From assembly GCA_028284265.1 (NCBI GenBank), contig JANQRZ010000024.1:64132-128131 (forward strand): DNA of 64,000 bases. The letters are read 5' to 3'. A model generated the notes under the pieces. That model made no database searches. It was not told the origin of the DNA and saw only the letters and a program-made list of their open reading frames with translations. Every line of letters begins with the position of its first letter. The first letter of the stretch is position 1. The translations under genes and the position numbers were made by a program. This document shows positions 15,311-45,766 of the stretch, piece by piece. Source of the DNA: Rhodothermales bacterium. Its GTDB lineage: Bacteria > Bacteroidota > Rhodothermia > Rhodothermales > JANQRZ01.

Positions 15311-16912
15311 ATGCTGCGCCCGATTTTCCCTGTTTCTGATGTTGGCTCTGTCTCCGCGCAAGCTGTTATAGGACCTTCCCTTCAGCGCGCCTACCGTTGC
15401 ATCCCACTCGGCCTAGACGGTGAGCATCTCCGCATAGGTGTGGCGGGCGAGCTATCTGCCGAAGTGCTTCGAGAGCTTGCTTTTGCCACGGGGAAGCGTA
15501 TTGAGCAAGTGGCGGTCGATAGTGACGTCATCGAGCAGCACCTAGCGAAGATTGCAGACAGCGAACCTTCCGGGCAGGCAGTCGATGCGCTTGCCGACGA
15601 GGCTGCTGGGCAACACGGGGATGCAGAACCGGAAAACCAGACTGAAAGAAGCGGCGTAGAGAGCAGTCCGATGAGCCCATACACGTTGCCAATGACCGAC
15701 CTCCAAGTCGGTCCTGTTGTTCAACAGGTCGACCGGATCATCCAACGCGCGATCCGGCTTGGAGCGAGCGACATACACATTGAGCCCTACGAGGAGACGC
15801 TCCGCGTGCGCTACCGCTTGGACGGTTTGCTTCATCTGGCAGGCGAGCTTCGGTACGCGCAGCGCGAGGCAATCGTATCGCGGATCAAGGTTCTCGCCTC
15901 GCTCGACATCGCCGAGAAGCGTCGCCCTCAAGATGGACGGATCAGCATCACGCACACGCAAAGTGACTCTACCGGGCAGGCAGTTGGTTCAGGAGCACGG
16001 ACTGTTGATCTCCGGGTATCGGTGCTCCCTACGCATTTCGGGGAGAAAGCTGTACTCCGCATTCTTGACCGGGAGAGCCTGCGTCTTGACCTCGGCGCGC
16101 TGGGGCTTGCTGGGGCCTCGGCTGCGGCCTTCCATCGGGCTATCGAAGCGCCGCACGGGATGGTGCTGGTCACTGGGCCGACCGGCAGCGGGAAGACGAC
16201 TACGCTCTACGCTGCGCTGAGCGCACTCCCGCGAGAGCGCCTGAACGTAACGACGGTCGAGGACCCTATCGAGTACGACATCCAGGGGGTGAACCAAACC
16301 CAGGCAAGGCCCGAGATCGGGTTTTCGTTCCCCGAGGCGCTCCGGGCGTTTCTGCGCCAGGACCCGGACGTGATTATGGTGGGCGAGGTCCGGGACACAG
16401 AGACGGCCGAGGTCGCTGTGCGCGCCGCGCTTACTGGGCACCTCGTGCTGTCTACGCTCCACACGAACGACGCGCCCTCGACGGTGACGCGGCTTGTCGA
16501 CATGGGCGTTGCACCGTACCTCGTGGCAGCATCCGTTCGGCTGGTCGCTGCGCAGCGGCTGGTGCGCCAGGTGTGCCCAGGCTGCAAAGAGCCGTTGGAC
16601 CACGGCCAACTACCAAAGAATCTCGAGCGCGACCTGGAGCGGGTGCTCGGAGCAGGCGAAGCTGCCGAGCTAGTCCAGGGGAGAGGGTGCGATGCGTGCG
16701 GCGGAACGGGCTACCGGGGGCGGATGGCAATCTTCGAAGTCATGCCAATGACCGAAGTGGTAGCCCGGCTTGTTGCAGACGGTGCGAGCACGCAGGAAGT
16801 CCGCATGCAGGCCGAGTCCGAGGGTATGGAGTCGCTCCGCCAGGCGGCGGTGCGGAAGCTCGCCGCAGGTCAGACGACTATAGAGGAAGTTGTGCGCGCT
16901 ACCATCGCCTAG
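15311..16912 (+). CDS. Type II secretion / type IV pilus assembly ATPase (GspE/PilB family)
   Basis: The N-terminal T2SE_N-like domain reads YRCIPLGLDGEHLRIGVAGELS. Walker A is VTGPTGSGKTTT and Walker B is DPDVIMVGEVRD. The tetracysteine motif CPGCKEP...CDACGGTGYRGR is present. The track ORF opens at GTG 15170; ATG 15311 is preferred. Confidence 0.9.
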   Translation: MLRPIFPVSDVGSVSAQAVIGPSLQRAYRCIPLGLDGEHLRIGVAGELSAEVLRELAFATGKRIEQVAVDSDVIEQHLAKIADSEPSGQAVDALADEAAGQHGDAEPENQTERSGVESSPMSPYTLPMTDLQVGPVVQQVDRIIQRAIRLGASDIHIEPYEETLRVRYRLDGLLHLAGELRYAQREAIVSRIKVLASLDIAEKRRPQDGRISITHTQSDSTGQAVGSGARTVDLRVSVLPTHFGEKAVLRILDRESLRLDLGALGLAGASAAAFHRAIEAPHGMVLVTGPTGSGKTTTLYAALSALPRERLNVTTVEDPIEYDIQGVNQTQARPEIGFSFPEALRAFLRQDPDVIMVGEVRDTETAEVAVRAALTGHLVLSTLHTNDAPSTVTRLVDMGVAPYLVAASVRLVAAQRLVRQVCPGCKEPLDHGQLPKNLERDLERVLGAGEAAELVQGRGCDACGGTGYRGRMAIFEVMPMTEVVARLVADGASTQEVRMQAESEGMESLRQAAVRKLAAGQTTIEEVVRATIA

Positions 16913-17172
16913 CGCCGTTCTTTTCCTCTTGTGGAATCTGGATGCCTGGTAGAATGTGATGGCTATTGTATTTGTATTAAACCGGATGAGATAAATCTTG
17001 GGCACCAAGGAATGACCTTGACTTTATGGTGTTTCGGTTTGTATTTGATAATATCGATCGTCCCGCGCTCTGGATGACAGCTTTCCAACGGTGCTTTGAT
17101 GCATCCTTGTTGGCTCCCTTGCGTTTCTATCCTGCTCTCGTAACACGTACGATCCTGCTCCCCCGACTCCAC

Positions 17173-20100
17173 ATGGTCACCGCAAAAATAGTGGGACGCA
17201 CCCGGCGTGCATGTTGGGTTCTCATTGCACTCGTTGCTACCTATCCAGTCAATGTATTGGCGCAGGGAATTGAGGCGCTCAACGGGTACGGCGTGCAGCC
17301 TGAAGTTCACCACTTCGCACGGCCTCAGACGGCTGGAGTGGATGCCTATGGTGATCTCAACCTCCAAGTCCCCGTGATGAATATTCCCGGGCGAGGAGGA
17401 CTCGACTTCGACGTTACCCTCAGCTACCGCTCAGGCATCAAGACGACACAGCGTGCATCGTGGGTGGGTCTTGGCTGGTCCTTCGATCCAGGTTCGATTA
17501 CGCGCTCCCCAAACGGTGGGGCGTCCATGAACAGTACGTTTTATAACGTTGACTTTGCAGAGCCTACCCAGTATCTCCAAGACACGTACTATCTGACCCT
17601 CCCCGGGCGTGGGACGACGGAGATGATCCGGCGTCATAATTTTCTTCCGGCGACGCCCAGTCCCTGGACGGGAGGGGATCTAGATCCGAATGGTTTTTCG
17701 CTTGCTTCGTGGCGCCCTTGGCGGGTCGAGTACTTTGCTGAGGAAGCAGGATACAACCTCATCGATGTCAATGATCTGGATCCAACAGTGGGATGCGCTG
17801 CGGAAGTTGCTGACTACCTCAAGGCCGGGAAGCTTACCTATGTCGGCAGTTCAGGGGATCCTCCTTGGGAGGACAAAGAGGAATTTTCCCACTTCGTAGT
17901 TACTACGGAAGACGGAACGCGGTACGTGTTCGCCGCGCCAACGCTGTCGACCTTCGTTGCAGGAATGCCTCCCAATCACACCGGAGTAGACTACCAGTCG
18001 CTGGAGTATTACGTGGGTGCGTGGCGACTTGTGGCTATTCTTGGCAACGATTACGCCTGGAACGGTGCGCTAAACACGATTCCTTCTAGGGCGAATAATA
18101 ACCTTGACGAGCCTGGCCGTTGGGTGGCGTTCGAGTATTCTCTAGCACAGGGCCTCCTGTCGAGCCGCTCGGGTAATACAGTCTATCCTGACTCTTGGAG
18201 GCATGTTGAGCACGCTCGCTATCTACAAGAGATTATCACGCCAACTCACTATGCTAAGTTTGAAGTGTCGGCTAGTGTTTTTTACGATGGAGGATGTACT
18301 AGCGGTGTCAACCCTGTGGCACGAGGAGAGCACCGGAGTCAACTCAACGGCATCAAGCTCTACAAGCGGGGCCCAGATGGCCAGCTGGAGATGCCGGACC
18401 ACCTTATCAAAGAGGTTCGCCTGGGGTTTGACAATACGCTACACTGCTCTCCGGCAACGTGCGCGGGCGCCAATCCGACGCATACCACGCTCAGTGAAGT
18501 ATATGAGATTGACCGCGCAGGTAACGCACTGCCTGGGTATTCGTTTGATTACGGGGCAAATGTCCCGGGGTGGAATCCAGACCCAGAAGAGTTACAGGAT
18601 TTCTACAGTACGGGGAATACCATTCACGCGATCAGCGATCACTTCCGTTACTTCAACAGGGGAGGAGGAGAGCCTTATGATCACGTCGGACGACACTACT
18701 TCGACACAGACGCTACTGATGCCCGGGCGTGGTCTCTCAGAAAAGTGACCTTCCCAACGGGGGCTTGGGAGCAGTACGACTACGAAAACGATCAGATCGA
18801 CGAACTCCTATATCAAGAGCCTCCCGACAGTGGTTGTGGATCCCAATGTCCAGTGCAAAACTTTACGAACATTCCTTTCTATAGGTATGACAGCGATTGG
18901 GAGGGATATGTTGCAGGTCAGGAGGCCTACTCCTTCAACGTTACATGGCCTCCAGGGACTATAGATCGCTTTGAGGAGCGGTACAGACAAGGTGGTGTGC
19001 GCGTAACCTCTATTACGCGGCCTGGCAGTGATGAAAGTGGCACCAGTCAAGTCACGCAGTACGAGTATGGCCCAGGTAACGCGACAGGGATACCATCTGG
19101 CTTCTGGCAAGAGTTCCAAAGGGACTACAGCGACTACATCTTTACCCCGCCCTCTCGGGGTAAGGACGCTGTCATCTATGATTCAGTAAAAGAGATCAAG
19201 CCAGACGGGACAGAGCGCTACCGAGAGTTTCTAACCTACAGAAAGTATGACATCTTCACGCCGGTAATCGGCGACCAGTACTCCACGCCGCGACGCGTTA
19301 GCTCGGTGTTCTTCCGAGATGAGGCTGATCCCAACTATATAACTGTCATTCAGGGAAATGAGCACCTCAACTGGGGGAGCGTTCTCTACGAGACCAACTC
19401 GTATTGGGGAGGGGCTTCATCGAACCGGATGACGCGGCGGTACTCGTGGCATGATCATCGGATTTACGCTGGCGCTCCAGTGTGGCCCCCAGCAGGGCAA
19501 AACCAGGGAGGCCAACCCGATGAAGCAAGAACGCCCTTCGCGGGCTGGATGCATGCGGGGCTTCTACTTGAGGAGCATGAGTTCGACGGGTACGAGTTCC
19601 AGTTTCCGGAGAGTGACATCTGGTCCACCCAAACAGGGGGCGCTATGCACCGGGGCGCTTGGTACGAATACGACCAAGGAAACAATCCCAATAATGGGTC
19701 TTTCCTTTTAAAGCGGAAGATCGAGACGGTAAGTCTGCCAAGCGACTTTGATTTCTCAAGCGACTGGCAGCGCCAGCTCCGCGTGACCGACTACACACGA
19801 GCCTACGAGAGCTACGCGAGTGTTGACCCCTTGCAGAATCCGTTCTTTGTGAGTGGCAACTTGGCTGCTGTCGCCCAAGAAACGGTCTCTGACGCACGGG
19901 TCGGGTGGCAAGACCAGATCAATGTCTGGGACGACATCAGTCACCCGATGGCGTCTGTGACACCTATGACATCGGTTGTGACGACATGGAGCAACACATT
20001 GGGAGTTGCCTCGTGGAAGCCGTCAGAGTCATACGTATGGCTCAAGGAGAATAGCGGGGAACTGGCCCACTATTGGAGCTCGTCAGTCTATCCGACGGAC

Positions 20101-23100
20101 TGGACTGGCGGTAGCGCGGGTGGTGACTGGTTGCTTCAAGAGAAGAACGTTGGCTTCGACCAGCACGGCCAGGTGACGAGCCGGACTGTAGGTGGTGTTG
20201 ACCTGTTACTCGAGTACGGGGGGTGGAAGAACACCGAGCTTCATAAGGTCACGGCAGGCAGTGGCAGTGAGACGGTCTCTCGCACGCTTTACTACGACTC
20301 GGAGACGGGTCTCCTTAACGAGGTCTTGGACGACAACGTGGAGGGGCCTTCGTTTGCCTACGACGAGAGCCTGCGGCTTGCCGAGACGCTCGATGCAGAG
20401 GGGCGCGTCACGGCAGCCCACAACTACCACCTCCGTGGTGAAGGGGGTATCGTCTCTAGTGCCCCTAGCCACGCAGAGACGGTTGTCTACGCCAACGGAA
20501 ACCTGATCCGAAACGGCTCCTTCGAGCTTGCCGAGCGGAATGGATGCCAACCAAGTGGCGCAGCGCAAGCGTGGACGATGGGCGGTGCCACGTTGCAGTG
20601 CTACCGAACGGACGCAGCCCTGGGTGTCTCGTATGCCGAGACTACCTCTTCAACGGCGATCACCCAGAGTGTCACAGTCGAACCGGGGCGAGAGTACGTC
20701 GTTGTGGTGTTTTTCGGCGGGGCGGGTGCTCAGGGGCGGCTGCTCCTCGCCGACGGAAGCGGATCGGCGAGTGGAATCGAGGTTCTGGATTCCGACGGAG
20801 ATCTTACTGAGGGGCAGTTGTCGGGCTGGCACACGCTCACCGAAGGGGGCGGCCAAAGTGGAGCGTGGCGGATGAGATGGGCACGGGTCCGACCGACCGT
20901 TAGTACGATGCAGGTGGGGCTTGCGCGGGAAGGCGGAGGTGGTGCCCTGCGGATCGATGCTGTTGCTGTGACGCCGATTCACGAGGGCTACGACCCTGAG
21001 CAGGACGACGACAGGTATCTGGACCTGGCATATCCTTCTGTTGCCGTGGGCTACACCAACCGCTGGGGCGAGACGGTGCAGACGGTCACAGCGGAGGGGC
21101 CGTATGCAATCTCAGAAGAGACAACGCAGCACCAGACGCTCGACGTGCTCGGGGCAGTCACGAAAGCCTGGCTCCCCGTCCGTGGGGAGTACGGCACGAG
21201 TGTGATTGGTGCCTACGGTACAGAAGCCCAGGTTGGCGCTCGTGCTTCGACCTATTATTCAGGGAGCCATGTAGATGATGGCGTCCCGGTGCCGGGAGCA
21301 GGAGGAGTGCCGTTTGCCGAGCAGGAGTACTACCAAGACCTCCACCGGATGCCCAAGCTCTCCCGGCCGCCGGGCGACGACTTCAGTGATGATGAGACGA
21401 GGTTCGAGCACGTCGTTGCGGGGGTCAGCGTTGAAGATGGGCGGGTCCGTACCGAACTTGGACGGGTCGAGGACCCTGACGGACGGATCACCCATACCTA
21501 CGTCGACTCAGAAGGGAAAGAATGGATGAGGCGGCAGGTAGGGTCGAGCGATCAGCTACCAGAGGACTCCAAAGTACTCCACAACTACGTCGATGGTGCT
21601 AACTATCAGACCTGTGGGGCACCTCGAGAGGCAGCACCGGAGACGGGTCTGCCCCAGCGTACGCCGGTTTCGGGGCCGTGTCCTGTGATAGAAGAGGTTA
21701 CCGTGCAGCTTCGCCAGGCCATCGAGTACGAGGTCCATCTCGAAGTTGGCGGACTGACCAACGCCGGGCTAGTGATTGCAGAAGTCAATGTCTACGAAGA
21801 AGACGCAGGGACGTCGTGGCCCTACTACCACCCCATTCTCGTGATGCGCGAGACGGTGTCCAACGAAGTGAGTGAGGCGTGCTCGGAGACCTATGACGGA
21901 ACTCAAAGCCCTCAGATAGACAACTGCCGCTACGCTCTGAAGACAGGGTTTGTGCTGGCCCGACCCGGGAAGAGGTACATCTTCGAAGCGAACACGCTCA
22001 TCACCACCGACGACGATCATACCGTAGAGAAGCACGCTAGGGTGGATGCGATCGTTCGCTATTACGCTGGGGATCTAGCTTCAGGTGTCACACGGCCGTT
22101 TACGGAGACAGAGTCCGAGTATGACTTCAACGGCAACCTCACCGTGGTCCGCCCGCCGAACTACTTCGAGCCGCCGAGTGGCACCGACAGCGACTACGAG
22201 ACGCGCTACACCTACGACTCGGCGGGCCGGATGCTCTCGCAGCGCACGCCGGATGCCGGGACGACGACCTATGGGTACGACGAGCATAGCCGGATGCGCT
22301 ATAGCCAAGATGCCAATCAGGCGGCTGCAAACAGTGGGGCAGGCGAGTTTATGCTGTACTGCTACGATTCGGTTGGAAGGATCTCAAGGCAGGGGTTGGT
22401 AGACGTACTTCCTCCTGCGGGAACGTGCCCGGGCGAGACCGACCAGAGTGTGGACTGGCGGCTCATCAACCGCTACGATGAGGCGGTAAACCTCTCCGAT
22501 GCGCCATTCAATGGGTGCAACGCAGGATGTGCTTCGTTCGAGTCGCAGTTAGAGAACACGGCAGGGCGGCTGGTCGCCTCGGCCCATAAGAGCAACGGGC
22601 AGTGGCAGGCGACGTTCTACTCCTATGATGCCGACGGCCGGGTGGTGATAGAGGCCAAGCGTGCTGATGGTGCTGCACCCGAATGGGATTACCATCGCTT
22701 CGCCTACGACGCAAGCGGTAAGGTCGTCTGGACGAACGTGGACATTGGCGATCACGAACTCACCCACTACTATACCTATGACCGGCGTGGGCTGCTTCAC
22801 CGCTCCTATGTCTCATCACAGGCTTCCATGCCGTCGCGCCCCGCAGAGCCGGATGCCGAGTACACCTACGACGTCGCGGGCCGCATGGCAAAGGTGGGTC
22901 TTCGGAAGACCAACGGAGGTAGCTTCAGGGTCTTGACGCCCTACACCTATGACATCCAGGGGCGGCTCGTTGCCATTGGAGGCATCGATAAGGATCCGTG
23001 GGCATCGTCAGCCCCCTTCTCGTCTCGTTACACGTACAGCGCCGCAGGACTAATCGAGCGTGGGGACTATCTCACGCCGGATGCAGTCCAGTATGCTAGT

Positions 23101-25191: not shown

Positions 25192-25259
25192 TGGGTGTTT
25201 AGGAATCATTATGTACGATCACCATGCTTGTTGATTTTTTATCATAATGATTATGAGAC

Positions 25260-28406: not shown

Positions 28407-28481
28407 CATTCCCCACTCCGACGGATCACGAGGGGTGCAGTGTGGTGCCCCGGCGGTACACGGCCCAGCGCGGAGTACGCG

Positions 28482-30023: not shown

Positions 30024-30205
30024 GGTTTGCGACACAAGGGGAGTAGGTAGAGAGCCTCTACAAGATTCGGCCTACGCCGTAAGTGAGTGAACTGGTGCAT
30101 TTCTGGGACCCCTATTGATTAGTTGCATTCCTAACCCGTATCTAACAAACGGCTCCTCCTGCAAACACGCCTGTTTGGCTCTGGCAAATAACCCCGCTTG
30201 AGATT

Positions 30206-33200: not shown

Positions 33201-36200
33201 ATCCGCCTGATGAACCAGAAGATGAACAGCGCTCGTATAGGCAAGCGACAGCAACAGCATGGAAGAACGTCGGGGATAGCAGCACGCCCCATTGGCGACC
33301 GTACCGAAGCTATGAGTGGGACGCTCCTGCTGACGCCAGCGTCGAGGACGAACCGACGTTCGATGAGTGGTTGACTGCACCTGTGGAACCGGCTCCGTTG
33401 CCTATTGGGGCGTGGGACCTCGTTCAAACGCTTGGCTATGACCTGGGGCAAAGCGGACAACCCAACCTCATCGAGCAGTATGGAGGTACCACCACGCACC
33501 TAGAGTATGGCGGAGCAAACGGCACCGAGCTCCGCAAGGTGTCAATAGAAGCTTCCCCCGGTGCTTCGTGTCCGGGAGGGGAAGGGTGGGAGGACGAAGA
33601 CTGCGTCGAGCAGTCGATGGGCTATGACCTAGCGACAGGGCTTGTATCCAGTGTGACCAGCCCCAGCGGAGGCACGACACGGTTTGTCTACGACTCCGGC
33701 GGGCGCTTGGCCGAGACCATTGATGCCCACGGCTTGGTGACATCGGGGTACAGCTACGGTGTAGAGGGAGTGTACCAAGTGCCAGAGACTCCGCGCTACG
33801 TGGAGCAGGTCGTCTACCGCCAAGGCAATCTCCTACGAAACGGAAGCTTCGAGATATCCGAGGCAAGCCAAGACACTCCGGCGTCTTGGACGACGACGCC
33901 CGGTGCGGTGTCAGAGCGTAATACGCAGGTGGCAGCGCTGGGAGCGCAGCAGATGACGCTTAGCGGGGGCGAGGTGCGCCAGACGGTTGAGCTGGAAGAG
34001 GGGCAGACGTATGTCCTCGCTGCTTCCATGAACGGGGACCCCGGGGTCATACGGCTCTCCACGGAAGCTCAAATTTCGGGCGATGATCTCGAGCTAGACG
34101 TGCTGGAGCACAGTACCGGGCTGACCCATAGCACCCTCGGGGTGGGGCTTCACGAATTCACTTGGGCAACAACTAGAGATGCCTATCAGCGGGATTGGGT
34201 ACACTTCACCGCACTGGAAAGCGGAGCGTTGGAGGTGAGCTTTAGGAGAGGAAGCGGCGCAGACCCCAGCTTGGTTGATGCTGTCGTACTTGCCCCGCAG
34301 TCCTTGGAGGAGATGACAACCGACGAAGCGCTTGCTAGCGCCACGCCGGGCGTCTTGGTTACGTATGTCGACGGCAACGGACAAGTTGTCCAAACGGTCG
34401 AAGCCGACGGTCCCTACCACGCTGCCACTGAGCGCGTCCTTCACACGGTCCGGGACTGGGCAGGTCGCCCGGTCCGGGAGTACCTGCCTTACGAGCGCGA
34501 CGAGGGCGCGAACGAGAGCGTCGCTGGGGTCTACGAGGATGATGCAGAGACCCATGCGACGTCCTATTATAACAACTTACTGCCTGGCGAGGGAGGCAAC
34601 CTGCCCTACACCGAGACCACGTACTGGGGCGGGGGAGTGAACCAGCCCCGTTCTGTACGACCTCCTGGGGACGCTGAAGGAAATGGAGTCATTACCTACA
34701 CGCCTAGCATCTATCGCCACCGCTTCCAAGACGGGCACTACCTAACTGTGCATCGCATGGAGGTTGTCGACTTAGAAGGCAACACTACCTACACCTTCAC
34801 CGATGAGCGAGGCAACCAGTTTCTGACGCGCCAGATTGCCGAGGTTACAGTTCCTGGCGACTTTCCGGGCGATGTGCAGATCTCAGGCAACTACAGCTTC
34901 ACGCCGGACCAGAATATTATCGCCCAGTTAGATGTTGACGCTACAACAAGTAACGGAATCAAAGCCGTAGCGGGTGCCCATGTAGCGGAGATCGTTGAGC
35001 TAGGAGACGGTACCGAGCTTGGGTACAACGCCTACACAAGGAGTATTAAAGGGCGATCTATCTACATGGAGGATGGGGAGAATCCGGCGTGTGATCCTAG
35101 TTGGCCTACGCATAACGGCTTGCTGTGTCAGGGGAACGACGATTGTGGCTTTGGGCCTCACAACTACTGCTTCCCTCCGCAAGACTTGACCTTCGAGGGT
35201 GAAGTCCCGCTCTATGCTGGACGTGAGTACGACTTTGAGGTCAAGGCTTGGCAAACGGACGTGCAGGGTATCCCCGCATCCACGGCTAGCGTTACTCTGC
35301 ATCTTGGAGAGAGTAACGGGGATGGCAGCACGAGGGTCAAGGTGTTCTCGGACACCGAGCACCGCTACGACGCGGTCGGGAACCTCGTCGAGACGAGGCC
35401 ACCGAACTACGGGATGCCCCCTGCGGGGAGTGTGAGCGCGGACTGGCCTACGACTTATGCCTACAACACGCGCGGACAGCTTCTGGAGCAGACCACGCCA
35501 GACGCCGGAACGGTGCGCTACGGATACGATAAGGCCGGGCGACTTACCTATTCCCAGGACGCCCAGCAGGAAGCAGACGGCACGCTCTCGTGGCAGCGCT
35601 ACGACGCCCTCGGACGTGTCCACGAGGCTGGTATAGCGGAACTAGAAACGTGTGCGTCGTTCGAGGAGATTGATCCAGCGAGGAGTCCCTGGCAGCGAGT
35701 GCCTGCCGGGTCTCAGACGGGACCGTACTGTCTGACGGGGCATCAACAGCAGGAACTCTACGTCTTCGACGACCCCACGAAAATGCGGACGAGTGCGCCT
35801 CTTATTCCGCTCGTGGAGGGGTGGCCTTACTACAATGATATTGGTTTCGAATACACGAACACACGCGGCCGGTTGGTAGCCTCGGCTTACAAGAGCAACG
35901 GAAAGTGGCAAGCGACGCACTATGCCTACGACGCGGCCGGACGGGTTGAGCGAAAAGCGGTGCGCACGGAAGGGGCTAGCCCCCTGTGGGAGAGCTATAC
36001 GTATTCGTATGACGCGGCAGGGGCTGTGACCGAAGAGCGAGTCGAGGTGGGCGACAACCACGAACTGAGCCACTACTACGTACACAACGGACGAGGACTT
36101 CTCCACCGGGTGTACGTCTCGATGTCGGGGGAGCAGCCGTCGTTACCGGACGCCGAGTACGTTTACGACGTTGCCGGGCGCGTGTCCGAGGTGGGTATAC

Positions 36201-38437: not shown

Positions 38438-38438
38438 G

Positions 38439-38822
38439 ATGTTAAGACCCACAATCATAGAACTCCTTGAATCACTAGGCAACATGGAGGAGTGTATAAT
38501 TGAAAATATCGTATGGAAGAATTATGGAACTACTTTGGTAGTAGACATAATACGTCCAGGTGCGTCAGGAAATGCAAGACTCAAGTTCGATACCGTTCTG
38601 TATTTTCTAATGAATAATAGTATGACTAATCATATGATTGATAATATTAATGAGTTGAACTGGGGATACTCTGAGATGGCAATTGCTGAGTATCAGGAGC
38701 AATCAAAAATCATTGATAAGTATGAGAGTTCGAAAACACCTCTCCACCATGTGAATTTCTTGTGGGAAGACGAGAGGAGGATCGAGATAGTCTTTGGTGT
38801 CTTAAATCTTGAGATTTTATAA
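38439..38822 (+). CDS. Putative cognate immunity protein 2 (small acidic cytosolic protein)
   Basis: The ATG lies 1 nt after the Rhs2 stop (TAG-G-ATG). The gene is strongly AT-rich, encodes 127 aa, and has no TM helix or signal peptide. Confidence 0.6.
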   Translation: MLRPTIIELLESLGNMEECIIENIVWKNYGTTLVVDIIRPGASGNARLKFDTVLYFLMNNSMTNHMIDNINELNWGYSEMAIAEYQEQSKIIDKYESSKTPLHHVNFLWEDERRIEIVFGVLNLEIL

Positions 38823-39238
38823 AAATGGCTTATGCGCTACTGAATGGCGCGCCATGGCGTTGCTGCATTTTGTAAGTTAGGAGTGAAGAATAGATTCGTA
38901 GTCACAATGGCTTAAATGTTACTATCTAAGAAATATATAATGTGCATTTGGTGATTGTTGGCAACGATAGCGTTGCATTGCATTAGTGGTACTAAAGAGA
39001 ATAATATGGTTATCTATTCGCATTTAGAGTGTGGAGGAAATCTAACCATTCTGTTTGCTTCACTTCCTCTTTCTCGTTGACTTGGACTTCGAGATCGGAT
39101 ACCGCCTGAGAAGAGCGTGCAGCCAATCGCCCGGTGTGTCGAAGATCATGACAAGTTGAAAGTGTATTTTCACGGCAGTCGTCGTCTAGTGCACTAGCCC
39201 GGCTACCGTAACCAAGTAGACCTATCACTACTTCTCAA

Positions 39239-39862
39239 TTGGCCACTTTGGACCGTCCACCTCTCGGAAAATGGAGCCGCGTGGCTCTCCTCGCACTTGG
39301 AGTAGCTGTGCTCATCACGGTGCTCGAAGTCGTACCACGCTTCGGGAGCGCCCTCGAACTGGCTACGGAGTGGCGAGCACTCGAGAGCCAGCGCGCCGAG
39401 GCGGCTGGGGCTCCTGCTGCTCGCCAAGCTCTTGCAGCCGAGAACCGGAGGCTCCGGCAGCAACTGAATGAGCTCTTCGTAAGTCTCCCCAGCCGCGATC
39501 AGCTCTCGGCAGTCTTGGGTGAGCTTCAGCGCCACGCAGCGGAGACCGGGGTGACTCTTGAGCGCATAGAACCGGGTGAGGTGATGCCGGAGCGCACGCA
39601 TGAGGTACTCCCGCTTGCCGTAGAGATCCAGGGACCGTTCCACGCCACCGGACGCTTCGTGGACCGCGTCGAGCGCTCCCCGCTTCTGATTCAAGTCCAG
39701 GCCCTCAGCATCCGTCGCCAAAGTGAGGCCCCAAGCTCCGAGAGAGTTTCAGTAGAGACGACGCTGAACCTAGAGTCAGTTCGGCTTGGAGGGGGCGCGA
39801 GTCAAGACGAGGTGGGCGAAGACACAGACCGCAATAGCTCAAGTGAGAGACGTAATGGGTGA
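39239..39862 (+). CDS. PilO/GspM-like pilus assembly protein
   Basis: A short N-terminus is followed by a TM helix (VALLALGVAVLITVLEV), a coiled coil (ALAAENRRLRQQLNEL) and a ferredoxin-like C-terminus (PLAVEIQGPFHATGRFVDRVE). There is no in-frame ATG near the N-terminus. The start is TTG 39239 or GTG 39281 and is uncertain. Confidence 0.55.
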   Translation: MATLDRPPLGKWSRVALLALGVAVLITVLEVVPRFGSALELATEWRALESQRAEAAGAPAARQALAAENRRLRQQLNELFVSLPSRDQLSAVLGELQRHAAETGVTLERIEPGEVMPERTHEVLPLAVEIQGPFHATGRFVDRVERSPLLIQVQALSIRRQSEAPSSERVSVETTLNLESVRLGGGASQDEVGEDTDRNSSSERRNG

Positions 39863-40343
39863 CTCGTCCGCAGCCAATTGGAAAGAGCGCAAGGGGATCG
39901 TCCTCGTGCTCCTCGTTGCTGTCGTCGGTATCTGGGGCTACGCTGGCTACACGCTCTTTAGCACGCTGGGTGCAGTCGGAGACGAAGCGGTTTCAGAGCG
40001 CGTCGTGCCTTCGGAGCGTCCTCGGGCCTCGCCGCCGCCCGTTGACCGCTCGGCCTTTGTGTACACCGGGGCTTTCCGCGACCCCTTCGGCTCGGCGTAC
40101 CGGGAAGCGGTTGCTCTTTCTCCGTCGTCCACGCCCCGGACGCAGCCCGCCCCTGAGCCGGAGCCGCCTTCGGTTCGCATCCTCGGCCTCGTCAATGAAA
40201 CCGCGACCGTGGAGACGGCCTCGGGGGCCATCCGTTTTGTTCGCCGGGGGGACGAGGTGGACGGAGCACGGGTGACGGCCGTCCGAGCATCGGGGATCAC
40301 GCTACGAAAGGCGGGACGCTCCTACGACATCCCCGTGCAGTAG
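39855..40343 (+). CDS. PilP/GspC-like assembly protein
   Basis: The protein has an N-terminal TM helix (IVLVLLVAVVGIWGYAGYTLF), a Pro-rich linker and a C-terminal beta domain VRILGLVNETATVETASGAIRFVRRGDEVDGARVTAVRASGITLRK. It overlaps the PilO-like gene by 8 nt. Confidence 0.45.
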   Translation: MGDSSAANWKERKGIVLVLLVAVVGIWGYAGYTLFSTLGAVGDEAVSERVVPSERPRASPPPVDRSAFVYTGAFRDPFGSAYREAVALSPSSTPRTQPAPEPEPPSVRILGLVNETATVETASGAIRFVRRGDEVDGARVTAVRASGITLRKAGRSYDIPVQ

Positions 40344-40558
40344 GGTAGGCCCTAGCGCGCAGTCGGTACCGTGTTATCTTGACGCGGTGGTCGCTCTGGT
40401 GTACCTGTCGGGGGCCGGTTCGGATATATTACGACGTGAGCGTGCCTGCCAACCTCAGTGCGCCGGTTGCTCTGTTCTAAGCACAGTGTACGCCGGTGTC
40501 GCTGCTCTCGGAAGAGCTAGACCATCGTTGTCCACAACGTAATCGAGTTTGTACAGTC

Positions 40559-41059
40559 ATGAAGGTTAACAACAACGCACCGGACAAGGTGAGACCTCGC
40601 CCCGGCGTCGCCTCCCGCATCAAGGCCGCTTTCGGCAGGCTCGGGACGTTCACCGGAAGAGTAGCGCGAGGGGACGGAGGGTTCACGCTTCCCGAACTTC
40701 TGATCGTGCTGGTCATCGTCGGCATTCTCGCGGTACTTGCCATTCCCCGGTTCTTCAGCGTCACCGCGCGGGCCAAGATGGCCGAGGCGAAACTCATGCT
40801 GCGCCAGGTCTACACGCTCCAGGAGGCCTACTACTACGAGTACGACCGCTACGCCTCTGATCTGACGGCGCTCGGGTTCGAGCAGACTCGGCTGATCACC
40901 GAGGACGGCACGGCGCGCTACCTGATCGGCATCGAAGAGGCCGACGGCGTAGGGTTTATCGCTGCTGCGACGGCAGTAGTGGATTTCGACAAGGACGGCA
41001 CGTTCAACGTGTGGGAGGTCGACGCCGAGGGTGTGATCCGGCAGCGCGTGGCCGACTAA
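40559..41059 (+). CDS. Type IV pilin / T2SS pseudopilin with prepilin N-terminal motif
   Basis: The class III signal GG|FTLPELLIVLVIVGILAVLAIPRF has Glu at +5. It is preceded by an unusually long leader, 41 aa from the ATG or 31 aa from an in-frame GTG. Confidence 0.8.
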   Translation: MKVNNNAPDKVRPRPGVASRIKAAFGRLGTFTGRVARGDGGFTLPELLIVLVIVGILAVLAIPRFFSVTARAKMAEAKLMLRQVYTLQEAYYYEYDRYASDLTALGFEQTRLITEDGTARYLIGIEEADGVGFIAAATAVVDFDKDGTFNVWEVDAEGVIRQRVAD

Positions 41060-41147
41060 GCTGTTCCACGATGTATCCTGAGTGATCGCCTCGCATAGAG
41101 CGTCCTCTTGCCAAGCTGATTCACCCGCTCAAACGGAGGTGCACACG

Positions 41148-41723
41148 ATGGAGCTTACCCGCGTGCGTGGCGGCTACAGCCTACAGCCCATACTGTGGGT
41201 GGCTCCGGTACTACTCGCTTTCCCGTTCCTACGTAGCCCCGAGTCGCTAGAGTATTTCCGAACGGCCCTCCTGCTGTGGCTCCTCGGGTGGGCCGCCGTG
41301 AGCGATCTCCGGCATGGAACGATTCCCAACTGGTTGAACGCTCTCGGAGGAGTCTTCGCACTCATGCCTGCCGTTGCCGGAGGAACTGGGAGGCTGGGGG
41401 CTGCTTTGGTGGGTGGCGTCGCCTGTGGCCTTGCGCTCCTCGGGGTGCGTGCGTTTGGGTATCTCATGGCCCGGCAACCGGGCATGGGCTACGGCGATGT
41501 TAAACTCGGCGCGGTCGTCGGTCTACTTCTCGGATGGAGCGGCTTGTGGGCACTCTACCTCGGGGCGGTCCTGGCAGGCGTCGTCGGAGTCGTGGGAATC
41601 ACCGTTGGCCGGATAGCCAGGCGTGAGCGAATCCCATTTGCGCCCTTCATTGCGCTCGGGGTCGTGGTCCACCTCTTCTGGCTTCCAGCGGAGCGCGTGT
41701 TCTCCTGGCTACTATGGCTGTGA
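41148..41723 (+). CDS. Prepilin peptidase (A24 family), short form without N-terminal methyltransferase region
   Basis: This polytopic membrane protein has the two Asp motifs AAVSDLRHGTIPN and GMGYGDVKLGAVVG. It is only ~191 aa from MELTRV. The ATG at 41148 is preceded by GGAGGT. Confidence 0.8.
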   Translation: MELTRVRGGYSLQPILWVAPVLLAFPFLRSPESLEYFRTALLLWLLGWAAVSDLRHGTIPNWLNALGGVFALMPAVAGGTGRLGAALVGGVACGLALLGVRAFGYLMARQPGMGYGDVKLGAVVGLLLGWSGLWALYLGAVLAGVVGVVGITVGRIARRERIPFAPFIALGVVVHLFWLPAERVFSWLLWL

Positions 41724-43210
41724 CTGCCAACTCATCTAGTACGAGTAGATGTCGTGCTATCCGGTCGGAAGACGGCTCGGCCATCGTGATGGTGCTCGTG
41801 ATGCTCGTCGTCGTGACAACGCTCACAGGGACCGTCATGCTCGTCTACCTAGCGCAGCACCGGTTTGTCGTGCGGGACATGGAGCGCCTCCAGGCGGTCT
41901 ACGCTGCCGAGGCGGCGGTCTATGCCGCTGTTGATCGCTTCGAGGCCGACCCGGCGTGGCGCGCCGACCAAGAGACGCTAGAGATCGCAGGGATTACGCA
42001 AAACGCGAGAAGTTTGCCGGGCGCACCTACTGTCGCTACGGGTACCCGTGTCCCGCAACTTACCGTCACGGCGCGCGCGCTGGGGGGCTATCTCCAGGTC
42101 CACGCCACGGCAGAGCAGGGCCATGCCCGCGCTACGGTCCAAGCGTTGTTTGGGCAGGAACCTTTCGAGCCTTTCGAGCACGCCGTTGTTTTCGGCGATA
42201 CCACGACGGCGCTCGTTTTAGCCGGACGGACGCAGGTCACAGGAGGTATTCTCACGGGGCTAAAGGGGGTACGCACGGCTCCGCTCCGCCGCCATCCCTT
42301 CACAGGAGCCTTCCGGGGGCGTGTGCACCGGCGGCGTGATCCCCTCCCAGAACTCGATAGCCGCCTTTTCGCCGAGACCGTAGAACGGTTTGAGGGCTAC
42401 CTCGCGATGCTCCCAGACTCGCTCTCCCGCTTCCCCGAGGTATGGACTGGAGGCGGGAGTATGGCGGAGGAGCGGCTTTTTGCCGACTCCCTCGCATTGC
42501 TTCAGGCTGGGGATGGTACGGTTCTCTCGGAGGCCGATTCTGCTCTCTTAGCGCACCCCGTATTTCTCGTTGCTGCAGGCGACGTGACGCTTACCGGAGC
42601 CGTGCGCTTGGCCCCCGGCAGTACCGTGGTAGTCGGCGGCGTACTTCGGATTCCGGGGGCACTCTTGGCTGACGATTGCATGCTCTTTGCAGACCGCGTA
42701 CTGGTTTCTGGCCCGTCTGAATTGTCGGGGCAGATTCTTGCCCGTCGGGCCATTGAGCTAGACGGAGGGGCGTACTTGCGCGACCCCTCGGTGGTCTACA
42801 TCGCCGCCGAGGGCACGCGTGGCCCACGCGAGGACCGAATCGAGATTGGCCGTGCGGTGGTAGACGGGACGGTAGTCTACCCCCCTTACGAAAGTAGGTC
42901 TCAAGTTGAGGGTGCGCCTCCTCGCGGAGAGCCAACGCGGGTGGTGCTCGGCACTCAGTCTAGGGTGCGCGGCAGCGTCTACAACGCCCGGAAGACCGAG
43001 GCCGAGGGGCAAGTTGCAGGGACGCTTCTTACCCACGAGACGTACCTCTATGAGTCTCCGGTGTCCTACCAGGGCTGGCTAAGCAGCCCGGTCCTCGACC
43101 GCGAGGCCCGACCCGATCCGTATGTTCTGCCACTTGTATTTCCCCGCCGCTCCCGAGCAGTACCTCTCCACTGGACAGAGTCCACCGAACTGGTATCTGT
43201 TAATCCATGA
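41714..43210 (+). CDS. Large PilX/GspK-like minor pilin candidate
   Basis: The N-terminus RSEDG|SAIVMVLVMLVVVTTLTGTVMLVY resembles PilX_N/GspK hydrophobic N-termini. The ~450-aa C-terminal region has repetitive V-x-G-x-V/L stretches suggestive of a beta-helix. It overlaps the peptidase gene by 10 nt. Confidence 0.45.
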   Translation: MAVTANSSSTSRCRAIRSEDGSAIVMVLVMLVVVTTLTGTVMLVYLAQHRFVVRDMERLQAVYAAEAAVYAAVDRFEADPAWRADQETLEIAGITQNARSLPGAPTVATGTRVPQLTVTARALGGYLQVHATAEQGHARATVQALFGQEPFEPFEHAVVFGDTTTALVLAGRTQVTGGILTGLKGVRTAPLRRHPFTGAFRGRVHRRRDPLPELDSRLFAETVERFEGYLAMLPDSLSRFPEVWTGGGSMAEERLFADSLALLQAGDGTVLSEADSALLAHPVFLVAAGDVTLTGAVRLAPGSTVVVGGVLRIPGALLADDCMLFADRVLVSGPSELSGQILARRAIELDGGAYLRDPSVVYIAAEGTRGPREDRIEIGRAVVDGTVVYPPYESRSQVEGAPPRGEPTRVVLGTQSRVRGSVYNARKTEAEGQVAGTLLTHETYLYESPVSYQGWLSSPVLDREARPDPYVLPLVFPRRSRAVPLHWTESTELVSVNP

Positions 43211-43437
43211 CTCTTTGGTCTCTTATACCAAGCTTCCTAAGACGACGAACGGAGGACTGTACAGTACGAAGCCTCCGTCCGTCTATAGGCACCCAGCCGA
43301 CCGAGCATGGTCATTCGATCAGGTGGTTTCAATCGACTCGGCACGGCCTGCCCGGACAACACGGCGGGGGCACTACTTCAGGTTCTAGCGAGGTCCGATC
43401 AAGGGGCGCTCCTAGAGCAATAGACCAAAGCCGAAGT

Positions 43438-43848
43438 ATGGACATAGTCTGGAGTGAGCGCGGGTACACGGTCGCCGAATCTGCTGTTGCGCTCGCGCTT
43501 CTTCTCACAGTTCTCGTTCCGGCAGTAGGTACACTTACCTACCTCGTAACCCAGAAACGGACGGAGCACCGAATGGAAGCCCTCGTTTTTGCCCGGCACG
43601 AGATGGAACAGACGCTGGCCGCCGAGCGCTTCGAACCTGCTGTGCGCCAGGACGGAGCGTGGCGCACGGTGCGAGACATAGACAGTCAGGATGGCTTGGT
43701 GGTGATAACACTCAGCGTGTACCGAGCGCCGAGGGGCGACGCTACCGGCGAAAGCGCAGGGGGCGAAGGCGTTAGGGCGAGGGCTCCGCTCGTAGTCCTC
43801 CGAACCGCGCGGCAAGAGAAGGGCGAACCCTTGGGGGCGAGCCCATGA
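43438..43848 (+). CDS. Minor pseudopilin
   Basis: MDIVWSERG|YTVAESAVALALLLTVLVPAV is a prepilin-like motif with Glu at +5. The track ORF opens at 43207, but the upstream part lacks coding character. Confidence 0.55.
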   Translation: MDIVWSERGYTVAESAVALALLLTVLVPAVGTLTYLVTQKRTEHRMEALVFARHEMEQTLAAERFEPAVRQDGAWRTVRDIDSQDGLVVITLSVYRAPRGDATGESAGGEGVRARAPLVVLRTARQEKGEPLGASP

Positions 43849-44504
43849 GTCCAAGAGAGCTTTTAAGCCAAGAAACGCAAGGCCTCGTGTCTGACGCTCA
43901 CGGCACCGATTCCGAGGCGGGGTTTACGCTCGTCGAGGTCGTCGTGGCGACGATGCTTGCCACGCTCGTGGCAGGGCTCGTCCTTACAACTTACATTCTG
44001 GCCGCAGGGTATGTCACTCGCTGGCAGACCGGCCTTGCGGCTGAGAACGCGCTCCACGTCGTGCAGGAGCGCCTCGCAGCCGATCTCCGGCGGGCTGAGC
44101 GCGTCGTCTGGGCCGAGTGGTTAGGGGCAGATGCACGCTCTGAGGCACAGAATCGCCTGGAATTGGTCAAGCACGACTCTATGCGCCTGGTGTACGAGGT
44201 ACACGACAGCGTGCTCGTACGAAACGCCCGCCCCATGCACGGCCCGGAACTACGAGTTGCCGACTTCGACGTAACGGTTTATGGAAGCGGGGAGGTGGAC
44301 GGAAGCACGCGGCCCGAACGCCAGGACAATTTTGCTTCCTCGGGTAGCTTAGCTCCGCTCAGTCTTGCTACCTCCGAGGAGCACCCCGTCTACGTAGAGG
44401 TTCGACTCGGCTGGGTACGCGAAGCTGAAACATCTTCTGCCGTCCTCAGTGCTCATTTTCGAAGTCCGCACCGGTGGGCGCCTGAATATTCTTCGTCCCG
44501 ATAA
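43845..44504 (+). CDS. Minor pseudopilin with prepilin N-terminal cleavage/methylation motif
   Basis: ...TDSEAG|FTLVEVVVATMLATLVAGLVLTTYIL. The leader is 26 aa. There is an ATGA overlap with the previous gene. Confidence 0.7.
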   Translation: MSPRELLSQETQGLVSDAHGTDSEAGFTLVEVVVATMLATLVAGLVLTTYILAAGYVTRWQTGLAAENALHVVQERLAADLRRAERVVWAEWLGADARSEAQNRLELVKHDSMRLVYEVHDSVLVRNARPMHGPELRVADFDVTVYGSGEVDGSTRPERQDNFASSGSLAPLSLATSEEHPVYVEVRLGWVREAETSSAVLSAHFRSPHRWAPEYSSSR

Positions 44505-44557
44505 ACATGGACTCAGCCGCTTTCCAAGGCGACAAGCCAAAGGCTCCCTGAACTCGT

Positions 44558-45766
44558 ATGCCGAAACTCCCTCGCGCCGTCCAAGAGCGCGCCGGTCGGA
44601 CATCGAGTCGGGCACCGCGCAAGGCTGGCTCCTATGCGGCGCTCGCTCTGCAAAGGAGCCAGCAGGGGGAACGGGCGAGTCAAGCTGTTCCTGAGACGAC
44701 GGGAGTATTGGAGACACTTAGAGCTGGTCGGAAGCCTCCTGTGCGCGCCGTGGTAGAGTTCACCCGGAGCCTCGCCGTCATGGTAAGCGCCCGGATTCCC
44801 GTGGTCGAAGCGCTGGAGACAGCCGCTCGACAGGTCGAGCACACGGCTCTCCAGACGACCCTTGCTGGGGTCGCCGAACGAGTGAGGAGCGGTGACAGCC
44901 TCTCGCTGGCCCTCGCCCAGCACCCGGAAATCTTCAGTGTGCTCTACGTGCACCTCGTCAGGGTAGGAGAGGTCGCAGGGCTTCTCGACCAGATGCTCTT
45001 GCGCCTTGCGGCCTACCTCGAAAACGAGCAGGTGCTTCGCCGTCGCCTCCGGCTTGCGATTGCCTACCCGGCGGTCGTCTTGGCTGTGACGGTCGGCGCA
45101 ACTGCTTTTCTACTGGCGGTCATCATTCCAACCTTTGCCGAGATGTTCGCCGACTTCGGAGCAGAGCTTCCGGCCCCGACACTCGCCGTAATTGCGGCCT
45201 CGGACTTTCTGCGCCGTTACGCGCTCGTGCTCGCGCTCTTCGGTATAGTGCTCGTCTTCTTGGTGCGCCGCGTCTTGGCAACGGATAAAGGAGCCGTTCG
45301 TTGGGACCAATTCAAGCTGCGCGTCCCGGTCATAGGCACGCTCTACCGCAAGGCACTCACCGCACGCTTCTGCAGCACGCTCGGCACGCTCGTCTCAAGC
45401 GGCGTTCCGCTCACGGAGGCGCTCGACGTCACGGCGGGAGCGGTAAACAACCGGGTCGTCGAGCGCGTGGTGCGCGAGATGAAGCGCCGAGTCACCCGGG
45501 GAAGCAGTCTCGCTGGTCCGCTCGAAACCGCCAGCGTATTCCCTCCGATGGTGGTTCAGATGGTCGCTGTTGGCGAGGAGACCGCTCGGCTCGGGGAGAT
45601 GCTAGCCCATGTAGCAGGGCACTTCGAGACGGAGGTTGATACCGCAGTTGACGCGCTGACGTCGGTCATCGAGCCGGTCATGATTGTACTGCTCGGCATT
45701 GTGCTTGGCGCAATTCTCATCTCGATTTATCTCCCAATGTTCGACCTAACCACGGCGATTCAGTGA
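44558..45766 (+). CDS. T2SS/T4P inner-membrane platform protein (GspF/PilC family)
   Basis: Two T2SSF repeats are present (FTRSLAVMVSARIPVVEALE..., FCSTLGTLVSSGVPLTEALD...) with three TM segments. The C-terminus IYLPMFDL is typical of the family. Confidence 0.9.
   Translation: MPKLPRAVQERAGRTSSRAPRKAGSYAALALQRSQQGERASQAVPETTGVLETLRAGRKPPVRAVVEFTRSLAVMVSARIPVVEALETAARQVEHTALQTTLAGVAERVRSGDSLSLALAQHPEIFSVLYVHLVRVGEVAGLLDQMLLRLAAYLENEQVLRRRLRLAIAYPAVVLAVTVGATAFLLAVIIPTFAEMFADFGAELPAPTLAVIAASDFLRRYALVLALFGIVLVFLVRRVLATDKGAVRWDQFKLRVPVIGTLYRKALTARFCSTLGTLVSSGVPLTEALDVTAGAVNNRVVERVVREMKRRVTRGSSLAGPLETASVFPPMVVQMVAVGEETARLGEMLAHVAGHFETEVDTAVDALTSVIEPVMIVLLGIVLGAILISIYLPMFDLTTAIQ

Follow-up and report, generated by a model that had tools for sequence, protein, structure and literature searches.

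The DNA analysed here is a stretch of 64,000 nucleotides from a Rhodothermales bacterium (assembly GCA_028284265.1, contig JANQRZ010000024.1, positions 64,132 to 128,131 of the forward strand). We refer to the whole stretch as the window and count all its coordinates from its first letter. The GC (guanine plus cytosine) content of the window is about 65%. At 15170-45766 it carries fifteen intact open reading frames (ORFs), all co-directional on the + strand, which encode a complete type IV (T4) filament machine and two cassettes consisting of a giant Rhs (rearrangement hotspot) toxin gene and a putative immunity gene. We found that Rhs genes accompany this family of machines in about ten phyla, and we propose that the machine, which resembles a type II secretion system (T2SS) in architecture, may export these toxins.

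The gene calls are ORFs scanned with Pfam and NCBIfam, and equivalogs were judged by the curated cut-offs of NCBIfam. The identities obtained in this way bear out a preliminary description of the same DNA, which had listed fifteen genes on one strand making up a full machine and two Rhs cassettes. The features are as follows; a slash within a motif marks the processing site.

15170-16912, + strand: GspE/PilB-family assembly ATPase with an MshEN-like N-domain (Pfam T2SSE 2.2e-127, MshEN 1.1e-7)
17026-25191, + strand: Rhs1 (RHS_repeat; matches to hidden Markov models (HMMs) of the Rhs core and N-terminus)
24282-24457, + strand: Rhs core-end segment of 176 nt (86% identical to 37585-37760 in Rhs2; repeat search)
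25260-25847, + strand: putative immunity protein 1 with predicted transmembrane helices, GC 0.39 (directly 3' of Rhs1; composition)
26208-28406, + strand: secretin with N0/STN/N1 domains (Pfam Secretin 1.3e-42, STN, Secretin_N, N0)
28440-30023, + strand: PilM-PilN fusion (Pfam PilN at residues 435-507; family profile PilM and PilN)
30206-38437, + strand: Rhs2 (Pfam RHS repeats, DUF6443, weak SpvB)
38439-38822, + strand: putative immunity protein 2, GC 0.37, weakly YxiG-like (Pfam YxiG E=0.0034, below the cut-off; composition)
39239-39862, + strand: PilO/GspM-like protein (Pfam PilO 4.1e-15; weak NCBIfam GspM)
39786-40343, + strand: PilP/GspC-like protein (frame kept in 36 related loci; weak GspC_delta and pilP_fam matches)
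40496-41059, + strand: major (pseudo)pilin, site G/FTLPE (N_methyl, weak ComP_DUS; PilA and GspG N-terminal matches)
41082-41723, + strand: prepilin peptidase (Peptidase_A24 5.7e-13)
41714-43210, + strand: large tip-type minor pilin of 498 residues, beta-solenoid, ComZ-like (PilX_N; AlphaFold2 (AF2) model; Foldseek)
43207-43848, + strand: minor pilin, GspI/ComGE-like, G/YTVAE (only a weak ComGE/XpsI NCBIfam match and the motif)
43845-44504, + strand: minor pilin, GspJ-like, G/FTLVE (N_methyl; weak NCBIfam GspJ)
44558-45766, + strand: GspF/PilC platform protein (T2SSF 3.1e-55)

The ATPase ORF is called from 15170 here, and the preliminary description used the ATG start at 15311. The true start of Rhs1 is probably 17173 (MVTAKIV...VLAQ/G), and in the Logan contig L002 the call for the PilM-PilN gene begins at 28482. 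For the PilP-like protein, the frame 39859-40275 was dropped in favour of the conserved one listed above, whose retention in related loci and weak GspC/PilP matches uphold the earlier proposal of such a protein. The absence of a PilT-like retraction ATPase was likewise confirmed, as no second T2SSE/PilT-type ATPase was found anywhere in the 64-kb window. A scan for promoters and terminators across the cassette junctions was uninformative, the consensus used being unsuited to Bacteroidota-type promoters.

Linkage of Rhs genes to the machine in related loci

One genome per species was scanned with an alignment of the secretin, and 80 loci were fetched via the secretin alone. They belong to Rhodothermales, Balneolales, other Bacteroidota, Cloacimonadota, Calditrichota, Zixibacteria, Ignavibacteria, Fibrobacteres, Fidelibacterota, Gemmatimonadota, a Verrucomicrobia metagenome-assembled genome (MAG) and Acidobacteria. 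The queries run against their six-frame ORFs were the proteins of the window and HMMs of the Rhs core and of the Rhs N-terminus. We observed an Rhs gene at most 10 kb from the secretin in 39 of the 80 loci and in 32 of the 48 loci of at least 15 kb, over about ten phyla; among the closest loci of at least 15 kb the proportion was 15/18. The background was estimated from 80 metagenome loci anchored on LigA homologues (0.96 Mb in total) and scored identically, which contained Rhs in a single locus (1/80; 1/27 at a length of at least 15 kb). The difference was highly significant according to Fisher's test (odds ratio 52 and p=3.3e-8 for loci of at least 15 kb; p=2e-13 for all loci). Of four such ORFs from distant lineages, three were shown by Pfam to have RHS repeats, and the fourth (from Sulfidibacter) was marginal. 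The link between Rhs and this machine family is statistically strong and phylogenetically broad. The preliminary description had named sporadic, strain-specific insertion as the outcome that would speak against a functional tie; such insertion does not describe the family as a whole, though it fits Rhs1, which is missing from the two nearest relatives (L090 and L091).

The median distance from the last recognisable machine gene to the nearest Rhs was 886 bp, it was 500 bp or less in 16/39 loci, and in 27/39 loci this Rhs lay on the same strand as the secretin. When ORFs were clustered all against all, Rhs was present in 34 loci, comparable to PilO (34) and the pilin (31), and every other non-machine family occurred in at most seven; Rhs is the sole conserved non-machine family. 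Its position varies. It follows the peptidase in Gracilimonas and Balneola (Balneolales), lies divergently upstream of the ATPase in L006, L017, L039, L045 and L079, upstream on the same strand in L021, L028, L051 and L072, and inside the cluster in L029 and in the window. The interleaving of Rhs with machine genes that had been described earlier is therefore real in the window and not a rule, since most relatives have Rhs at the cluster edge, at times divergently transcribed. The Rhs linkage is kept while the gene order changes. In addition, the machine occurs twice on the 6.5-Mb chromosome OY843751.1, as paralogues separated by about 660 kb (L025 and L027), each with an Rhs after the peptidase.

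For the reverse comparison we took three proteins homologous to the Rhs2 N-terminus that had been identified without use of the secretin. Two of the three (P0062 and P0057) stand directly beside machine genes, in both cases directly after GspF: the homologue in L087 comes after a series of pilin, peptidase, ComZ-like pilin, minor pilins and GspF, and the other after a fragment of GspF on a plasmid-like contig with Rep3/ParA. The distances between Rhs N-termini and between secretins covaried modestly (Mantel r=0.385, reached in 112/5000 permutations). Both comparisons proposed in the preliminary description, of co-occurrence with synteny and of phylogenetic co-variation, have thus been carried out, the former with a clear and the latter with a modest result.

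Two further features of the relatives were recorded. In six related loci a gene for a sigma-54 activator lies inside the machine cluster (e.g., L005 14332-15684; L022 14116-15546), which hints at regulation of the system in those lineages. Some relatives without Rhs have other giant secreted proteins beside the machine (L093 28617-31293 on a plasmid of Pontibacter sp. G13, L049 and L061), with GEVED-domain, ricin-lectin and CARDB/PKD features. The giant neighbours in the Rhs-less Fibrobacteres loci are lectin, CARDB and PKD surface proteins and were not counted as cargo.

Character of the machine

The core parts match the equivalogs of type IVa pili (T4aP) and of the T2SS about equally, and all of them stay under the curated cut-offs. 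The ATPase scored 558 bits as PilB (cut-off 676) and 526 as GspE (630), the platform protein 347 as PilC (700) and 332 as GspF (424), the secretin 196 both as GspD (351) and as PilQ (284), and the pilin 36 as GspG (89). At the level of the GspD/E/F/G equivalogs the machine is not a T2SS, though the domain families are present according to Pfam. It does not qualify as a T4aP either, as PilB, PilC and PilQ are below the cut-offs, PilM and PilN are fused and PilT is absent from the window. The architecture is T2SS-like, with a GspL-like fusion, weak GspM and GspC matches and a single ATPase in the window.

Pfam did not recognise the N-terminal, PilM half of the fusion. A profile built from 19 members of the fusion family matched PilM (5eou, E=6.6e-11; 3jc8_M, 2.9e-10) and PilN (3jc8_N, 2e-6). 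The PilM matches comprised Pseudomonas, Myxococcus and Thermus proteins (including 2ych) at 6.6e-11 to 6e-7, and PilM preceded PilN, the expected order, which substantiates the fusion already suspected in the preliminary description. By sequence this protein is nearer to PilM/PilN than to GspL, and its architecture is like that of GspL or MshI. The secretin has 24 relatives at 35-72% identity, and the next proteins, PilQ, share just 24-26%; a third homology search with the secretin alignment added no further family members. Judged from these sequence comparisons, the secretin represents a distinct family whose centre is the FCB (Fibrobacterota-Chlorobiota-Bacteroidota) group.

The AF2 model of the 498-residue minor pilin is of high confidence (predicted local distance difference test (pLDDT) 90.2; predicted template modelling score (pTM) 0.88) and combines a long pilin helix at the N-terminus with a beta-sheet and a beta-solenoid. 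The protein has no Glu5 (G/SAIVM), as in tip pilins of the GspK/PilX type, and the other three pilins have it. In a Foldseek search of the PDB with this model the top matches were three chains of Thermus ComZ (6qvi; E=6e-6, probability 0.99, TM score only 0.19), and the profile of the tip pilin matched ComZ at E=1.2e-3. The pilin is thus a large beta-solenoid minor pilin of the ComZ kind, with the reservation of the TM score of 0.19. An exhaustive HMMER search found 459 cluster representatives of this family, nearly all of full length, which implies that the system is widespread but not huge. Taken together, the machine is T2SS-like or mannose-sensitive haemagglutinin (MSH)-like in predicted architecture (fused PilM-N, an I/J/K-like tip set, PilT absent from the cluster) and a separate clade by sequence.

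The Rhs proteins, their toxin tips and the immunity genes

Rhs1 and Rhs2 have 2721 and 2743 residues, respectively, and match the RHS repeats of PF05593 (3.8e-12 and 1.4e-19) and the core HMM (6.6e-43 and 2.3e-41). The Rhs core motif in their C-terminal region (PISLVDPTGM in Rhs1, PVSLSDPTGN in Rhs2) is followed by tails of about 200 residues each, which are mutually unrelated, and then by a small ORF of low GC. The putative toxin of Rhs1 comprises about 225 residues and is glycine-rich and membrane-like, and that of Rhs2 about 200 residues; Pfam at E<=1 gave nothing usable for either tip. The immunity candidates are small ORFs located 2 and 69 bp downstream of the Rhs genes, with a GC of 0.37-0.39, and at E<=0.01 they had only sub-threshold Pfam matches, to DUF6585 and YxiG. 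Overall, Rhs1 and Rhs2 share 33-37% protein identity, which identifies them as divergent paralogues and not as a recent duplication. Because the 176-nt core-end segment is 86% identical although the proteins are that dissimilar, it is the likely recombination substrate for the swapping of toxin tips. In some relatives, arrays of short ORFs that start with an Rhs core end adjoin the clusters (L021 18697-20893; L037 4173-8791; L053 2-2320); by their sequence they look like orphan toxin-tip modules.

Signal peptides were judged by eye and hydropathy. Both window Rhs proteins begin with a Sec-type signal peptide (n-region, h-region and an A-Q cleavage motif; ...FAWAQ/P in Rhs2), as stated in the preliminary description. 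Together with the 14 linked Rhs N-termini examined in relatives, this makes 16 out of 16 with a signal peptide ending in A-Q. In seven of 16 members of the N-terminus family, Pfam reported SpvB below the cut-off (best 3.3e-5), and the profile of this family matched YenB at E=0.004. The AF2 model of the Rhs2 N-terminus, made from an alignment of 12 sequences, is of low confidence (pLDDT 48), and only its Foldseek ranking was used; YenB (2.5e-10), TcdB2-TccC3, mosquito SGS1 and SpvB-N were at the top, and the beta-propeller gate of the toxin complex (Tc) was not resolved in this model. We also observed that in relatives the giant Rhs can be split into an N-domain gene and an adjoining core/toxin gene, as are TcB and TcC (L086 9986-21182; L087 9827-20160; L089 1490-9065, in the L088/L089 pair; L012 15459-21602). 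In L087 the second gene encodes a Gln_amidase toxin and is followed by Imm35. These similarities suggest that the N-terminal domain of the linked Rhs is distantly SpvB/TcB-like and that the proteins are fusions of the TcB/TcC kind.

Partners of the known Rhs delivery routes were also looked for. No PAAR or VgrG domain was found by Pfam in six full-length Rhs proteins (Rhs1, Rhs2 and four from relatives), and no vgrG was seen in the window, which therefore lacks the make-up of an Rhs locus of the type VI secretion system (T6SS). The window contained no gene of TcA size, and the precomputed Pfam matches of called genes in the six contexts listed included no TcA-type family.

History, composition and mobility of the locus

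The Rhodothermales MAG in L006 has exactly the machine order of the window without internal cassettes, its Rhs being divergent upstream. In the nearest relative, L090, whose secretin is 72% identical, the ATPase abuts the secretin, and an Rhs with an N-terminus 49% identical to that of Rhs2 directly follows pilMN; in L091, too, nothing lies between ATPase and secretin. This implies that the Rhs1 cassette is a strain-specific addition, and that the Rhs2-type position, directly 3' of pilMN, is common to the window and its closest relative. The composition agrees with this: the GC of the machine genes is 0.61-0.66, that of the Rhs bodies 0.55-0.62, that of the toxin tips 0.50 and that of the immunity genes 0.37-0.39. 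No synteny of the flanks with other Rhodothermales loci was detected.

Machine and Rhs occur together on contigs with Rep3/ParA genes (L003/L004 1014-5630; L086 3082-5774). On the 298-kb megaplasmid pHIC of the cultured Fusobacteriota species Haliovirga abyssi (L092), an array running from GspE, F and G to the secretin continues into an annotated RHS core gene. On account of this plasmid-like carriage, the machine and Rhs appear to move as a unit.

Directly 3' of gspF in the window, the region 46023-49839 (GC 0.53-0.60) contains a 378-residue ORF with a weak C-terminal helix-turn-helix (HTH), a small HTH protein, an 89-residue ORF and a large serine recombinase, the end of which overlaps a tRNA-Lys(CTT) on the opposite strand. 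Pfam at E<=1 returned nothing usable for the ORF at 46023-47159. The region may be an integrative element or an island boundary. Direct repeats of the att type, matching the 3' end of the tRNA-Lys and delimiting an island, were looked for and not found; since serine recombinases need only very short cores, this does not fix its boundaries. Just upstream of the cluster are two adjacent 420-residue ORFs (12328-13590 and 13596-14858), the second with DUF4185 and the first without a Pfam match (nothing usable at E<=1). Further downstream, 51565-56181 on the - strand holds three consecutive genes for SurA/PpiC-type peptidyl-prolyl isomerases of 449, 307 and 734 residues, with a MoxR AAA ATPase and a TerB protein next to them; it is unusual for so many periplasmic chaperones to be encoded close to genes for giant periplasmic proteins.

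Proposed function and alternative explanations

Since the machine lies beside Rhs in two thirds of its relatives and in many phyla, it is probably an export or display route for these toxins. More specifically, we propose with a probability of roughly 0.45 that this T2SS-like T4 filament machine is dedicated to moving Rhs toxins across the outer membrane. That the machine is dedicated to Rhs export or display had been the central suggestion of the preliminary description, and it has gained support from the co-occurrence, from two of the three reverse cases and from the joint carriage on plasmids, with the transport itself still deduced. On the wider proposition our judgement is evenly balanced: the machine, in the FCB group and beyond, could be dedicated to secreting or presenting TcB/TcC-like Rhs cocoons exported by Sec, and would then be a fourth Rhs route besides the T6SS, the Tc injectors and Gram-positive Sec export, with the ComZ-like pilin as the cargo adaptor in the role played elsewhere by VgrG/PAAR or TcA.

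From the parts list and the linkage we infer the following course, in which the transport step, the contact of cargo with the pilus tip and the entry of the toxin into a target cell are the conjectural elements. The signal peptides suggest that Rhs would be exported unfolded via Sec. The RHS repeats, the core motif and the TcB-like N-terminus suggest that it would then fold in the periplasm into a TcB/TcC-type cocoon around the C-terminal toxin. An ATPase-driven (pseudo)pilus, assembled on the GspF/PilM-N/PilO/PilP platform and capped by a tip complex of the ComZ-like, GspI-like and GspJ-like pilins, would engage the cocoon and move it through the secretin, after which it would be released or retained at the surface. 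The cognate immunity genes would shield siblings.

Several observations weigh against this proposal. One third of the informative loci, mostly from Fibrobacteres and Ignavibacteria and some from Zixibacteria, have no Rhs within 10 kb, and the 10 kb upstream of P0065, the third homologue of the reverse comparison, contain no machine genes. Phylogenetically, the loci are not independent of one another, and the LigA control draws on different genomes. The resemblance of the ComZ-like tip pilin to a competence pilin that binds DNA would suit a pilus with another primary role. Moreover, a cocoon of TcB/TcC size is about 8-10 nm wide or more, at or above the lumens of solved secretins, so that it could pass only if the channel were unusually wide or flexible, or if folding were completed after export.

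The alternative that survives best is display at the pilus tip, whereby the cocoon would not be released but would stay bound to the ComZ-like/minor-pilin tip and be shown to targets on the extending pilus. Models for such display are PilY1 on T4aP, TcpF and CofJ on the tips of type IVb pili (T4bP) and PAAR-Rhs on the VgrG spike. The large beta-solenoid tip pilin without Glu5 is a conserved part of the machine, Rhs adjoins the pilin/minor-pilin half of the cluster in several loci (L087; Balneolales), and secretion of tip-bound cargo is established for T4bP. The small size of the mature major pilin (about 125 residues) fits display and release alike. However, the problem of secretin size is equally present, and a retraction ATPase is absent from the window; we consider display unlikely.

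It is also conceivable that machine and Rhs are co-regulated without any transport of one by the other. The pilus would then be a ComZ-type DNA-uptake or adhesion pilus, to which Rhs is linked for killing neighbours and taking up their DNA or for contact-dependent competition, and Rhs would cross the outer membrane in another way. Other bacteria are known to couple killing with competence, and the pilin has a weak ComP_DUS similarity. The best structural match of the tip pilin, the Thermus competence pilin ComZ (PMC6561018), also points this way. On this view the ComZ-like pilin would bind DNA. However, no ComEA/ComEC-type genes were found among the conserved neighbours of the relatives' clusters. 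In addition, co-regulation leaves the outer-membrane passage of Sec-exported Rhs unexplained, and the embedding inside the operon together with the joint plasmid carriage exceeds what it needs. We consider this explanation rather unlikely.

We regard as improbable that the toxins are delivered by a partner encoded elsewhere (a TcA-like injector, a T6SS, a type IX secretion system (T9SS) or lysis-based release) and that the pilus cluster is incidental. Classical Tc subunits have no signal peptides and all the linked Rhs have one, the window and the six contexts listed showed neither a TcA-sized gene nor a TcA-type family, respectively, and PAAR/VgrG domains are absent from the six Rhs scanned, as is a T9SS C-terminal signal, the C-terminus being the toxin. 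What speaks for such a partner is the TcB-like N-terminus, the TcB-like/TcC-like gene split in relatives and the fact that classical BC cocoons require TcA and are released by lysis (PMC10847048).

Finally, a mere pile-up of mobile Rhs cassettes next to the clusters, owing to mobility of the clusters or to their location in hot spots of recombination, would agree with the absence of Rhs1 from the two nearest relatives, the foreign GC of the Rhs bodies and above all of the toxin/immunity tips (0.37-0.55 against 0.63-0.66), the serine recombinase and tRNA-Lys just downstream, the lack of flank synteny with other Rhodothermales loci and the only modest Mantel correlation, but it is very improbable in view of the 52-fold enrichment over the LigA control, the standing of Rhs as the sole recurrent passenger family, the association over about ten phyla with changing positions and the Sec signal and TcB-like N-terminus common to all linked Rhs.

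The proposal of a dedicated export machine bears on how diderm bacteria that have no T6SS export Sec-dependent Rhs, and large toxins generally. If it is true, a secretin/pilus route for 300-kDa cocoons would be an extra delivery path for the most widespread scaffold of polymorphic toxins, and the known cargo size of secretins would be stretched. It would also give a function to poorly understood T2SS-like clusters of Bacteroidota, Rhodothermota, Balneolota, Cloacimonadota, Fibrobacterota and relatives. The hypothesis is directly testable in cultivable carriers, for which Gracilimonas tropica DSM 19535 (L065), Balneola sp. EhC07 (L011), Sulfidibacter corallicola M133 (L079) and Haliovirga abyssi IC12 (L092) are candidates.

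Comparison with known systems

The machine shares with the T2SS (Gsp/Pul/Xcp) a secretin, a GspE-type ATPase, a GspF platform, a short pilin, a GspI/J/K-like tip set and a prepilin peptidase, as well as the GspL architecture of the fused PilM-PilN, the absence of a retraction ATPase from the cluster and cargo with a Sec signal. It differs in that the window's parts are below the cut-offs for GspD/E/F/G and score equally against T4aP models, the fusion matches PilM/PilN and the tip pilin is ComZ-like. Its presumed cargo, an Rhs cocoon of about 300 kDa, is encoded in or beside the operon, whereas the genes for T2SS exoenzymes are scattered.

In Cytophaga hutchinsonii a putative T2SS (chu_3191-3201) has a divergent D/E/F/G/O/L/M/C set with accessory parts annotated as hypothetical, and mutants in it have a secretion-related phenotype, namely impaired use of cellulose (PMC5553014). 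This system, likened here by description, belongs to the FCB lineage and has a similar parts list, and its F-G-O-E-D order recurs in L053. In contrast to the present case, the term Rhs is absent from the text of that paper (PMC5553014).

The Rhs proteins resemble the BC subcomplex of Tc toxins (YenB/YenC, TcdB2-TccC3) in the RHS shell, the core motif, the variable and presumably encapsulated C-terminal toxin and, distantly, the putatively SpvB/TcB-like N-terminus, and the relatives' adjoining B-like and C-like genes add to the resemblance. Unlike that subcomplex, the window Rhs have a Sec signal and a candidate immunity gene, TcA was not seen in the window, and a secretin machine takes the place of lysis cassettes. 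The putative immunity gene beside Rhs points to interbacterial use.

With the Rhs of the T6SS and with WapA of Gram-positive bacteria the proteins have in common the RHS shell, the PxxxxDPxG core, putative polymorphic toxin/immunity pairs and, in relatives, the orphan arrays of toxin tips. They differ from T6SS Rhs in having no PAAR or VgrG domain. The Sec signal is shared with WapA, but a diderm host needs an outer-membrane route too. T4bP provide a precedent for the tip of a pilus carrying a secreted protein through a secretin, although the presumed cargo here is far larger than TcpF or CofJ. The large minor pilin, with its inserted beta-solenoid and predicted place at the tip, is comparable to ComZ of Thermus thermophilus (6qvi; PMC6561018); the two are only about 11-13% identical (TM score 0.19), and the likeness is known here from a predicted structure.

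The closest precedent for the cargo comes from some Xanthomonas and Ralstonia Rhs families that are linked to gspG and for which T2SS export has been predicted and not functionally confirmed; Rhs activity in cell-free supernatants has been reported for both genera (2025 preprint, 10.1101/2025.05.08.652813). The preliminary description had spoken of an undescribed Rhs delivery system. This holds in so far as an association of Rhs with the present secretin/pilus machine was not described in the literature covered by our full-text searches, and does not hold for T2SS-linked Rhs as such, which the preprint had already predicted (10.1101/2025.05.08.652813). What appears to be new, as far as the sequences indicate, is a T2SS-like T4 filament system for which Rhs would be the dedicated cargo, inherited along with it. 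The Xanthomonas and Ralstonia case is a single gspG link within Proteobacteria, whereas here a whole machine is linked, in the FCB group and other phyla, to fused, TcB-like Rhs.

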